NCBI GenBank assembly: GCA_013360285.1
Contig: JABWCM010000005.1
Location: forward strand, 2,149-66,148
DNA length: 64,000 bases
Direction: 5' to 3'
Source of the DNA: Myxococcales bacterium
GTDB taxonomy: Bacteria > Myxococcota_A > UBA9042 > JABWCM01
In this document: piece by piece, positions 56,581 to 60,021 of the stretch
How the letters are laid out: the number at the start of each line of letters is the position of its first letter
How positions within the stretch are numbered: the stretch's first letter is position 1
Made by a program: the position numbers and the translations under genes
Notes under the pieces: model-generated
Database searches by the model: none
Told to the model about the DNA's origin: nothing
The model's input: only the letters and a program-made list of their open reading frames with translations

Positions 56581-59500
56581 TTATGGGCAGTTACATGCGG
56601 AATCGCAATCGAGTGCCGCTTCCGAGACGCAGATTTCGTCCCAGGTGACTTCACAACAAAAATCGTCGAGAGCACAAACACACGACTGGCAATCCGCATC
56701 GGAACACCCCAGTCCGCCGTTTGCAAAACAACAATCGTTTGCAGCCTCACATCCGCAGTCGGTATCGCAAGCGGTTTGTGCAACCGTCGCACAACTGTCC
56801 GTCCACTCCGTGGTGCAGCAGGTATCGTCGATATCGCACACACACGCGGTACATCCGGTTACCGCGCAGCCCGGGGTTCCGTTCGCCGCGCAACAGTCCC
56901 CTTCCGGAGCCGCGCCGCAGCCGCATGCCGCCGAGCAGTCACCCGCCGCAAACTGCACACACACTTCGTCCCAGCCGACATCACAGCAGAAATCGTCATT
57001 TGTGCACACGCAGCTTTGACATGCGGGTGTTTCGCAACCCGGCTCAATGTGGGGTGCGCAGCAATCACCAGTTGCAAAGACACCAAAACACCCACACAAC
57101 GGTCCACAATCTTCGGCCGCAATCGTTACACACAACTCGTCCCAGGAAACACTGCAGCAAAAGTCGTCGAGTGCACACACGCAGGATTCACATTCGGCGT
57201 CGTCGCACCCAGGCTCCCCTTTCGGTGCACAACAATCCGAATTGGGACACCCACACTCGGTGCAGTTGGATGCGGCTTCCGCAACACACAGACCATCCCA
57301 GGTGACATCGCAGCAGAACGTATCGAGAGCACATACGCAGTCTTGGCAAAGCGGGTTACCACACCCAGGGGTATCCAGTGCCGTGCAACAATCTCCAGCC
57401 CCGAAATCAGGGCAATCACACACATCGTTGCAACCGGCCGATGCCTCCGCGACACACAGGTTGTCCCATCCGGTCGAGCAGCAAAACGGGTCATTACCAC
57501 AGACGCAGGATTGGCAGAGTTCATCTTTGCACCCAGCGGCACCCGTCGGGACACAACAGGAGCCTTCGCCCGGCTGGGAGATACACTGGCACGCATCATT
57601 GCAGTCCAGCGCCGCCTGACTTACACACAGGTTGTCCCACGCGGTGTCACAGCAGAACGGATCTGCAGCGCAGACGCATGCTTCGCACGCCGGTGCATTA
57701 CATCCTGGACCATTGTTGGGTAAACAGCAGTCGCCCGCGTCACACAAACACACCGAGTTGCATTCCAATCCGGCTTCACCTACACAGATGCTGTCCCACG
57801 CCGTGTCGCAACAGAAGCCATCCAGGCCACATACACACGCCTCACAGGCAGGGTTGTTACATCCTGTGTCATCATGGCTGCCACAGCAGTCGTTTGCGGG
57901 GCATCCACAAGCGGAACCACACTGGTCCGAAGCAATCGACACACACAGGCTATCCCATGCGGTACCGCAACAGAACGCATCGGTGCTGCAGACACAATTC
58001 TGGCACGGTAAGTTATCACATCCAGCCGTTGTGTGAGTGAAACAGCAATCCTCTGTGCCGGCGAACGGCTGGCACGAACAGGCTGCGTTACACTCTATTC
58101 CGGCCGTTGCCACACACAGGTTGTCCCAACCCACATCGCAACAGAACGAGTCCAGGTTGCAGACGCATTCCGAACAGTCCGCATCGTCGCAGCCGGCGCT
58201 GCTGTGGGGTTGGCAGCAGTCTTCGCTGTTGCACAAACAGGACGCATTGCAGTCCTCTGACCCGGCAGCGTCAACGCATAACGTATCCCACGCGGTGTCG
58301 CAGCAGAATGTGTCCAATGAACACACACAGTCAGTACATGCCACGTTGTCACAGCCCGGGACAGAGCTTGCGGTACAACAATCACCTGGCGGGCAGGAGC
58401 ATTGGCCAGCACAAGTGGTCTGTGCTTCACCGGCGCAGACGTCGTCCCACATCGTGTCGCAGCAGAAAGAATCCGCGGCGCATACACATGCTTCGCAGTC
58501 GAATGTTCCACACCCCGGGGACCCATTTGCCGAACAACAATCGCCGACACCACACCCACAGAAGTCCGCGCAGTTGTCTTTGGCACTGGCTACACACGCC
58601 GTATCCCAAGCGATACCGCAGCAGAAACCATCCAGGGCACACACACACCCTTCACACGAGTCGTCTTCGCATCCCGGAGAATTGTGGTCATCACAACAGG
58701 GTTGGTTACACAAACAGGGTCCGTCGACGTTCACCACACTGATTTGGCCGCGGAGTTCACCGTTGGGATACAGATCCGAGTGAATGTTGACATACAGGTT
58801 TCCAGCCACGAGTTCCGTGAGCAAAGTCGGCGTCAACAATGCGCTTCCGATTTTCGGCGTGCCGTCGGGTAACGGAATCACCACCGGGCCATTTTCGCCG
58901 GGCGGCGCCTGATGGATATGAGCGGCGATTTCCACGCCATCGAGATCTTTGTACGTGATTACGTAACTTAGCATCATGCCGTTTAATGTGAACGTTGCCG
59001 TTCCGGATCCTCCGGACGGAACCGGTGGATTATGCTGGCTTCCTTGGGGGGTTGCCGTAATGGACTGAGAAACCGCGCACAAACCGGTCGCTACGCTGAC
59101 ACAAAATTCGTCCCACGCCGAATCACAGCAAAACGGGTCGGCATTACACACACACGTTTCGCATTGGAAATTGGTGCATCCACCGATGTCGCTGGTCGAG
59201 CAGCAGTCACTTTGTGCTGGACAATCCAATCCGCACAAGGTTTGGGCTTCGGAAACACAGATCGAGTCCCATGCTTGTTCGCAGCAGAACGGGTCGAGAT
59301 TGCATACGCAGGTTTCCACCGCACTGTCGGAGCAACCGAGGTTGGTCCCGGCATCACAACAATCACCTTTGCACGCTCCAAATTGGCCGGCCAAGGAAGC
59401 ACAAGCACTTCCCCAGGTATCCGTACAGCAGGCGGCGTTAATCGAACACACCAACAACGTGGTCGTGTTGTCCTGGCAGCCGGGTGTTCCGTTGGCGCTG

Positions 59501-60021
59501 CAACAATCTCCCGTGCAGGCGCCGCAATCGCCGGGGCAAGTAAAGCAGTTTTCGGCACCGTCGGTGCACAATCCATCGCCGCATACCGGCACAAATAATT
59601 CGCAGGCGTCTGGACACTGGTTCGCATCTGCGTCGATCGTGGGATTCAGCGGCTGTTTTAATGAGTAAGAAATCACGATTTGTACGTCGACCACGTTGCG
59701 AGCATCGTCGCAGTTGGTATCGCCGAGCAGAACCGGAACCGCTAGGCAAAGCGGCTGAGCGCCGACCTGTCCTCCCAGCTCCCACAGGGCTACCAATATG
59801 GCGCACTGTACGTCCACAACGTTGGTCGTATTGTCGGCGTTAAAGTCACCCGGAGGGGTCAGACATCCCTGTTGTGCGTAACTGTTTTCGGCAACCAGGG
59901 TTGCGCCTCCAAACGCCGCAACCAGCAGAAGCACTCCGAAAAGTTGGCTCGGATATCGACCGAGTTGTTTTCTGCAACAACCCATCGACAGTCGGGAACG
60001 GATCTGCTTTAGAATACTCAT
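56581..60021 (-). CDS. Secreted protein (1,146 aa): N-terminal dockerin pair, ~16 novel ~50-aa Cys-rich repeats, embedded CHRD domain
   Basis: Signal/TM LFGVLLLVAAFGGATLVA. Dockerin segments GDFNADNTTNVVDVQCAILVALW and GDTNCDDARNVVDVQIVISYSL. Repeats fit DCC.....GC....C..CVC..D.FCC..[AGT]WD..CV..A...C. The CHRD-like segment is ...HIHQAPPGENGPVVIPL...GNLYVNIHSDLYPNGELRGQI. Confidence 0.65.
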   Translation of the reverse strand: MSILKQIRSRLSMGCCRKQLGRYPSQLFGVLLLVAAFGGATLVAENSYAQQGCLTPPGDFNADNTTNVVDVQCAILVALWELGGQVGAQPLCLAVPVLLGDTNCDDARNVVDVQIVISYSLKQPLNPTIDADANQCPDACELFVPVCGDGLCTDGAENCFTCPGDCGACTGDCCSANGTPGCQDNTTTLLVCSINAACCTDTWGSACASLAGQFGACKGDCCDAGTNLGCSDSAVETCVCNLDPFCCEQAWDSICVSEAQTLCGLDCPAQSDCCSTSDIGGCTNFQCETCVCNADPFCCDSAWDEFCVSVATGLCAVSQSITATPQGSQHNPPVPSGGSGTATFTLNGMMLSYVITYKDLDGVEIAAHIHQAPPGENGPVVIPLPDGTPKIGSALLTPTLLTELVAGNLYVNIHSDLYPNGELRGQISVVNVDGPCLCNQPCCDDHNSPGCEDDSCEGCVCALDGFCCGIAWDTACVASAKDNCADFCGCGVGDCCSANGSPGCGTFDCEACVCAADSFCCDTMWDDVCAGEAQTTCAGQCSCPPGDCCTASSVPGCDNVACTDCVCSLDTFCCDTAWDTLCVDAAGSEDCNASCLCNSEDCCQPHSSAGCDDADCSECVCNLDSFCCDVGWDNLCVATAGIECNAACSCQPFAGTEDCCFTHTTAGCDNLPCQNCVCSTDAFCCGTAWDSLCVSIASDQCGSACGCPANDCCGSHDDTGCNNPACEACVCGLDGFCCDTAWDSICVGEAGLECNSVCLCDAGDCCLPNNGPGCNAPACEACVCAADPFCCDTAWDNLCVSQAALDCNDACQCISQPGEGSCCVPTGAAGCKDELCQSCVCGNDPFCCSTGWDNLCVAEASAGCNDVCDCPDFGAGDCCTALDTPGCGNPLCQDCVCALDTFCCDVTWDGLCVAEAASNCTECGCPNSDCCAPKGEPGCDDAECESCVCALDDFCCSVSWDELCVTIAAEDCGPLCGCFGVFATGDCCAPHIEPGCETPACQSCVCTNDDFCCDVGWDEVCVQFAAGDCSAACGCGAAPEGDCCAANGTPGCAVTGCTACVCDIDDTCCTTEWTDSCATVAQTACDTDCGCEAANDCCFANGGLGCSDADCQSCVCALDDFCCEVTWDEICVSEAALDCDSACNCP

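Follow-up and report, generated by a model that had tools for sequence, protein, structure and literature searches.

The window analysed here, a stretch of 64,000 nucleotides, belongs to contig JABWCM010000005.1 of a Myxococcales bacterium. On its minus strand the open reading frame (ORF) 56581..60021 is a complete coding sequence, and its coordinates are exactly those of the segment in which a preliminary description had seen a novel cysteine-rich repeat with an embedded CHRD domain and an N-terminal dockerin. The encoded protein is identical with the NCBI entry NUN12242.1, recorded under the name 'CHRD domain-containing protein' from a Myxococcales bacterium metagenome-assembled genome (MAG), and is exceptionally rich in cysteine (200 Cys in 1146 amino acids (aa), i.e. 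17.5%). Its architecture comprises a hydrophobic leader, a dockerin-like module, a short cysteine-rich mini-module and 16 repeat units, the third of which harbours the CHRD domain:

56581..60021, minus strand: complete coding sequence, 1146 aa counting the stop, identical with NUN12242.1
60029..60034, minus strand: Shine-Dalgarno sequence AAGAGG, 8 nt upstream of the ATG at 60021
59875..60021, minus strand: leader with putative Sec-type signal peptide (aa 1-49); basic n-region, hydrophobic LFGVLLLVAAFGGATLVA, then SYA/QQ
59587..59874, minus strand: dockerin-like module (aa 50-145); two EF-hand-type loops, each followed by a helix; 6 Cys
59512..59586, minus strand: 6-Cys mini-module CGDGLCTDGAENCFTCPGDCGAC (aa 146-170), between dockerin and unit 1
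59077..59511, minus strand: first three repeat units (aa 171-315), the third only as far as its C45; 8, 10 and 10 Cys
58741..59058, minus strand: CHRD domain (aa 322-427); no Cys, isoelectric point (pI) ~5; inside the C45-C49 loop of unit 3
58708..58716, minus strand: C-L-C (aa 436-438), the C49-x-C51 element, with which unit 3 is completed behind the inserted CHRD
56584..58704, minus strand: remaining array, units 4-16 (aa 440-1146), reaching the C-terminus; every unit has 12 Cys

The repeat array dominates the protein. As already described, a cysteine-rich unit of approximately 50 aa occurs about 16 times; the count is 16 and the unit length ~53 aa, with three units at aa 171-323 and 13 at aa 440-1146. 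The consensus reads gDCC.....pGC....C..CVC..D.FCC...WD..CV..A....C...C.C. With a hidden Markov model (HMM) trained on 868 units, all from proteins other than the target, each of the 16 units scores 38-62 bits (E 1e-14 to 1e-21), and the repeat is far beyond chance. The earlier figure of 9-10 Cys per unit has to be revised to 12 for the canonical unit of ~53 aa, only the first three units having fewer. All 16 units share C3, C4, G11, C12, V21, C22, C28, C29, W33, C37, A41 and C45. The Trp-Asp pair, which had been taken as invariant, and the CVC/FCC signature are invariant only in part: W33, C28 and C29 are present throughout, but D34 and F27 are each found in 14/16 units and CVC in 15/16. Within NUN12242.1 the units are ~50% identical to each other, and surface positions are free to vary. 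At the DNA level no tandem repeat was found in the gene, so that the units appear anciently diverged and an assembly artefact or recent amplification is ruled out. Nowhere else in the window was the unit found.

Two properties of the array are prominent, namely its acidity and its pattern of cysteines. Units 4-16 together contain 87 Asp and 32 Glu along with 3 Lys and no Arg, resulting in a net charge of -116. Among the first units, unit 1 lacks C17, C20, C49 and C51 jointly and unit 2 lacks C17 together with C51; these joint losses suggest that C17/C20 pair with C49/C51. Structure prediction with AlphaFold2 (AF2), a check proposed at the outset, yielded a helical model of two units (predicted local distance difference test, pLDDT, 88.9) with four short helices per unit. 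In this model G11, V21, D25, F27, W33, D34 and A41 are located at helix starts or core-like positions, and from conservation and model together no conserved surface patch is evident on the unit.

The same unit is widespread. Among 1.84 billion sequence representatives at 50% identity a two-unit profile retrieves 5,211 proteins at E<=1e-3, 2,314 at E<=1e-10 and 748 at E<=1e-30. Searching the GTDB species representatives with target peptides gave 79 loci, nearly all of them from Planctomycetota (Phycisphaerales, Isosphaeraceae, Planctomycetaceae) or Myxococcota (Myxococcales, Nannocystis, Polyangiaceae), the remaining few belonging to Acidobacteriota, Bacteroidota, Binatia and Pseudomonadota; their record titles are nearly all marked as MAG and none is from a cultured isolate. 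In 189 family proteins with 1,938 units the number of units per protein has a median of 8 and a maximum of 33. The median unit contains 10.4 Cys per 53 aa, has a net charge of -7.6 and 0.5 Lys plus Arg. An even number of cysteines (10, 12, 14 or 8) is found in 81% of 1,165 units, and extra cysteines arrive in pairs. These even counts and paired gains, together with the joint losses in units 1 and 2 of the target, argue for cysteines engaged in disulfides rather than present as free thiols, as far as can be judged from sequence.

The domains joined to these arrays (here called heads) are diverse. Trypsin-like and reprolysin/M12 peptidases are the commonest, and further heads comprise M43, galactose-binding-like, FG-GAP, LTD, HYR, TSP3 and FGE-sulfatase domains, a MopE-type motif, cupredoxin and CHRD. 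Cupredoxin domains were seen in the relatives P0028, P0032, P0071 and P0111. The array extends to the C-terminus in 82 out of 187 proteins, and 17 out of 189 consist essentially of the array.

The CHRD domain proposed for NUN12242.1 is unambiguous: Pfam CHRD (PF07452) matches aa 322-427 with 97.7 bits (cut-off 24.1; E 1.1e-27) over profile positions 2-117 of 117. It does lie within the repeat region, as had been noted, but it does not separate one unit from the next. Unit 3 ends after C45 (aa 315), the CHRD domain follows, and behind it stands the C49-x-C51 element, which is otherwise missing from unit 3. Since unit 3 resumes with C-L-C behind the domain and the relatives match, the domain sits nested in this unit, inserted into its C45-C49 loop. 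The nesting is the same in all CHRD-bearing relatives examined (P0002, P0030 and three times in P0009). The homolog P0009 has three CHRD domains, each inside a unit loop, and P0030 and P0050 are paralogs of one genome (GCA_054014975.1). The only sequence relatives of the target CHRD in the PDB are recently solved chordin CHRD structures, all weak matches. The CHRD family adopts a Cu/Zn-superoxide dismutase (SOD)-like Greek-key barrel, and chordin CHRD binds sulfated glycosaminoglycans via many charge-based contacts to sulfate groups (PMC13382577).

Dockerins are taken here as two tandem 12-residue EF-hand-like Ca2+ loops (D-x-[ND]-x-[DN]-x6-D), each followed by a helix, and this is what the N-terminal module displays. 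Its loops DFNADNTTNVVD (aa 59-70) and DTNCDDARNVVD (aa 101-112) both fit D-x-N-x-D-x6-D, and its six cysteines are located at positions 53, 73, 92, 104, 136 and 140. The AF2 model (pLDDT 94.4, predicted template modelling score, pTM, 0.85) has two loop-helix motifs with helices at module residues 19-33 and 61-71, so that the predicted three-dimensional fold, too, is that of a dockerin. In a search of PDB sequences with the module profile, dockerins make up 15 of the 16 matches, with both halves aligned. The target module itself reaches 15.1-16.1 bits with Pfam Dockerin_1 (PF00404), which is under the gathering threshold of 22.9, and 14 out of 15 orthologous modules match PF00404 at E<=1 (best E 6.4e-7). 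By motif and predicted fold the module is a dockerin, though a divergent one, and the original assignment is thereby upheld.

Its N-terminal placement had been called unusual. N-terminal dockerins are indeed uncommon, but they are documented, as in the cellulosomal enzyme RfGH16_21 (PMC12484212), and in this subfamily they are the rule since 20 out of 21 relatives have the module at the N-terminus. In the homologs P0247 and P0155 the dockerin-like module is found at the C-terminal end instead. A literature search on dockerins with cysteine-rich proteins in Planctomycetes found nothing. Between dockerin and first unit the mini-module with the pattern CGDGxC...E.C..C..DCG.C recurs in homologs; it has no match in Pfam or NCBIfam. 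The homolog P0010 contains many mini-module copies interleaved with repeat units.

At the gene start the hydrophobic leader is conserved among homologs, and both the sequence and a comparison with homologs, whose mature module begins with a conserved A-x-A-x-C, point to SYA/QQ as signal peptide cleavage site. Farther upstream of the Shine-Dalgarno sequence an AT-rich stretch contains TTGACT-17 nt-TGAAAT, which was recognized by eye and is unscored by the scanner; the promoter scan upstream of the gene revealed no consensus promoter. On both strands the gene is overlapped by over 20 ORFs of 80-315 aa that use other frames (window positions 56645..59668, or 56.6-59.7 kb). They were judged to be by-products of its GC-rich repetitive coding sequence and rejected as genes.

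With this gene begins a minus-strand series of genes for large secreted proteins, and a divergent neighbour lies upstream of it:

53570..56314, minus strand: MMPL/RND-type transporter, 266 bp downstream of the target gene, same strand
50463..53534, minus strand: Dicty_CTDC plus Lcl_C protein, 1023 aa, Cys-rich; five CTDC stretches and an Lcl C-terminal domain
45928..50184, minus strand: large protein, 1418 aa, ~3% Cys; no Pfam or PDB sequence match
45138..45818, minus strand: small dockerin-like protein with the same Cys-stapled module (aa 76-165), 106 bits to the module profile
37761..44975, minus strand: Dicty_CTDC plus Laminin_G_3 protein, 2404 aa, Cys-rich; 12 matched CTDC stretches
33260..37675, minus strand: large protein, 1471 aa, ~3% Cys; no Pfam or PDB sequence match
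60163..62151, plus strand: DUF4331 plus C-terminal plastocyanin/azurin-type cupredoxin, divergent, upstream of the target gene

Between the target and the transporter gene a consensus scan gave no terminator-like site, and co-transcription of the two is possible. The Dicty_CTDC repeat of 37761..44975 and 50463..53534 is distinct from the cysteine-rich repeat of the target. The product of 45138..45818, 226 aa as listed and probably with an internal true start, scores 27.5 bits with Pfam Dockerin_1, i.e. above the threshold. Its tail is rich in Gly and Ser and shows two 'F.L.P.G / L.PK' motifs. Such a tail is common to a stand-alone family of ~160-180 aa (P0248, P0251-P0253, P0256), and the Cys-stapled dockerin-like module is also present in stand-alone proteins of ~170 aa. 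The large proteins 45928..50184 and 33260..37675 are no more than candidates for the dockerin partner. The listed start of 60163..62151 is probably too early, as the signal-peptide-like MRIRNSLFALGAVALMAAAAS begins ~106 aa into the ORF. More distantly an upstream envelope-related run (13415..22190, minus strand) encodes, among others, a TMEM260-like O-mannosyltransferase with TPR repeats, a Kelch-repeat protein, a PEGA-domain protein and a 969-aa protein that combines PD40 with an Omp85-type domain.

To which family does the repeat belong? Its earlier description as unassignable is confirmed with respect to characterised families. The local Pfam-A collection comprised 24,736 models, PF26780 not among them, and NCBIfam was scanned as well: the whole protein gives only CHRD in Pfam at E<=1 and nothing in NCBIfam, single and double units have no Pfam match at E<=10, and the unit has no profile match with models of EGF, TB, anaphylatoxin, LDL-A, TSP3, Dicty_CTDC or the Myxococcus Cys-rich repeat. 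Among PDB sequences the repeat profile found no solved structure, the sole match (phage G3P, E 0.13) being at chance level, and a comparison of the AF2 unit model with PDB folds revealed no structural match. The attribute 'novel' stands insofar as there is no characterised family and no solved relative, but it has to be qualified by a weak precomputed link to DUF8252 and by the size of the family, which is large and not rare.

It falls only slightly short of an even chance, in our estimation, that the unit simply is Pfam DUF8252 (PF26780), a recent entry, and hence already catalogued without any new family being involved. PF26780 is listed for the target in the precomputed annotation of a public database, where it is graded 'weak'. 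Of 120 matches, 62 bear the repeat and 58 do not; PF26780 is found on 48 of the former and on none of the latter, and in proteins consisting of array to ~90% it is the sole family annotation. On the other hand the grade is 'weak' or 'faint' in all six proteins checked (the target and five relatives), and 14 repeat-bearing proteins, close CHRD-bearing relatives among them, are without PF26780; neither unit subtype A nor B explains this pattern fully. Moreover, the 38-62 bits that a simple family HMM gives for each target unit imply that DUF8252 models the unit poorly or partly, and no paper mentioning PF26780 or DUF8252 was found in the literature. The DUF8252 model thus touches the repeat, but the most that this would give the unit is a catalogue entry as a domain of unknown function. 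We regard it as an uncharacterised module of a known kind, the disulfide-rich extracellular tandem module, probably with a new fold. The broader claim, namely that uncultured Planctomycetota and Myxococcota possess a very large family of polyanionic extracellular arrays defined by an undescribed disulfide-rich helical fold, together with a Cys-stapled dockerin variant used for non-cellulosomal extracellular complexes, is more tentative and in our view rather doubtful in its full extent.

Regarding function, we favour, with roughly even confidence, a secreted and docked protein in which a disulfide-locked, helical, polyanionic stalk of 16 units bears a nested CHRD head, the unit being a general extracellular scaffold or accessory module. 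A Sec signal peptide would export this modular extracellular protein, and the disulfide-stapled dockerin module with its Ca2+ loops would tether it to a partner, by analogy with cohesin-dockerin systems. The 16 units may fold independently, mostly as helices, each locked by up to six disulfides. Because they are extremely acidic and almost without Lys and Arg, the array is expected to form an extended polyanionic stalk, which would be resistant to oxidation and proteases and would probably bind cations. The predicted Cu/Zn-SOD-like β-barrel of CHRD in the loop of unit 3 would represent the one distinct head, whereas family-wide the unit would carry many different ones, especially proteases, as a general-purpose scaffold or accessory module. 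Such a role is suggested by the structural-looking conserved non-cysteine residues, by the diversity of heads and by the frequent C-terminal position of the array. Several observations weigh against this explanation. Array-only proteins exist, so the array may function beyond carrying a head. Neither a cohesin nor another partner was found by sequence (Pfam) in any window gene scanned. The gene neighbourhoods of relatives are not conserved and the context therefore adds little beyond being rich in secreted proteins. Finally, the target CHRD is acidic, which makes glycosaminoglycan binding of the chordin type doubtful; this is the one demonstrated function of CHRD and may not transfer to the target domain.

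The array-only proteins would also fit with units that are themselves binding modules (adhesins, lectins, carbohydrate-binding modules or binders of minerals and cationic surfaces), the array providing multivalent attachment and targeting or retaining the head on a polymer, particle or cell surface. We regard this as unlikely, though it deserves more weight than any role of the cysteines in metal binding. Arrays are usually located C-terminally to enzymatic heads like many accessory binding modules, the strong negative charge throughout the family could bind cations, minerals or basic surfaces, and the neighbouring genes encode large putative adhesin-like proteins (Laminin_G_3, Lcl_C, Dicty_CTDC). 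Yet residues conserved besides cysteine seem to serve the structure, there is free variation at the surface from unit to unit (~50% identity within one protein), and no known binding module is similar in sequence or fold. Quite improbable is an extracellular metallothionein-like store or buffer, e.g. for copper, with the cysteines as metal ligands. It would be in line with the divergent DUF4331-cupredoxin neighbour, the cupredoxin domains or MopE-type copper motifs of some relatives and the Cu/Zn-SOD-like fold of CHRD (PMC13382577), and the CxxC and CxC elements (C17/C20 and C49/C51) could in principle constitute a Cys4 site. But the protein is apparently secreted into an oxidising compartment, its cysteines occur in even numbers and are gained or lost in pairs, and metal-related heads are a small minority while proteases dominate. 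Metallothioneins are recognized by metal-ligand cysteines, the lack of an aromatic core and little regular secondary structure; the unit, whose aromatic and aliphatic core residues do not vary and whose helical model is confident, appears to be of another kind.

If the fold of the unit is new, it ranks among the larger uncharacterised extracellular modules of environmental bacteria: upwards of 5,000 clusters (50% identity) contain it, a protein may have as many as 33 copies, and fusion to secreted proteases is frequent. To know whether it acts as rigid spacer, as binder of cations or minerals or as adhesin would help to make sense of many giant surface proteins that are annotated as 'hypothetical' in Planctomycetota and Myxococcota. 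The Cys-stapled dockerin variant, which is found in multi-domain as well as stand-alone proteins and occurs twice in the target gene cluster (in the target and in 45138..45818), points to cohesin-dockerin-like assembly outside the cellulolytic Firmicutes. Studies on the function of bacterial CHRD domains gain a defined context from the conserved way in which CHRD is nested within a repeat loop.

Compared with known systems, the closest entry for the repeat is DUF8252, whose precomputed matches track the repeat but are weak or faint and absent in 14 repeat-bearing proteins, a comparison made via the annotation. With EGF, LDL-receptor class A, thrombospondin type 3, the ADAM cysteine-rich region and Dicty_CTDC the unit shares the principle of short, disulfide-locked, independently folded modules that are arrayed in secreted proteins. 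Such modules are also often acidic, Ca2+-binding and accessory to proteases. In contrast with them the target unit is predicted to be helical instead of β-rich or irregular, contains two vicinal CC pairs, a Trp that never varies and 10-12 Cys in ~53 aa, and matches neither their profiles nor any PDB fold.

The CHRD domain is clearly related (97.7 bits) to those of chordin (PDB 9qvv, 9igm) and of many bacterial secreted proteins, and it shows the typical HIH and NIHS...GELRGQI motifs of this family. It differs from these in being a single copy, acidic and nested within the loop of a cysteine-rich unit. The N-terminal module resembles type I dockerins (PF00404; cellulosomes of Clostridium and Ruminococcus; PDB 4dh2_D, 8ajy_D, 4fl4_A) in the duplicated loop-helix (F-hand) and in its D-x-N-x-D-x6-D loops, and its sequence-profile matches are almost exclusively dockerins. 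Its hosts, however, are Myxococcota and Planctomycetota and not cellulolytic Firmicutes. Unlike type I dockerins it is N-terminal in 20 out of 21 relatives, sub-threshold in Pfam as far as the target protein is concerned, and equipped with six conserved cysteines that presumably form three disulfides, with a third Asp-rich stretch (IDADxNxCPDAC) as tail and with helix starts (NVVDVQ) that are conserved in both halves.

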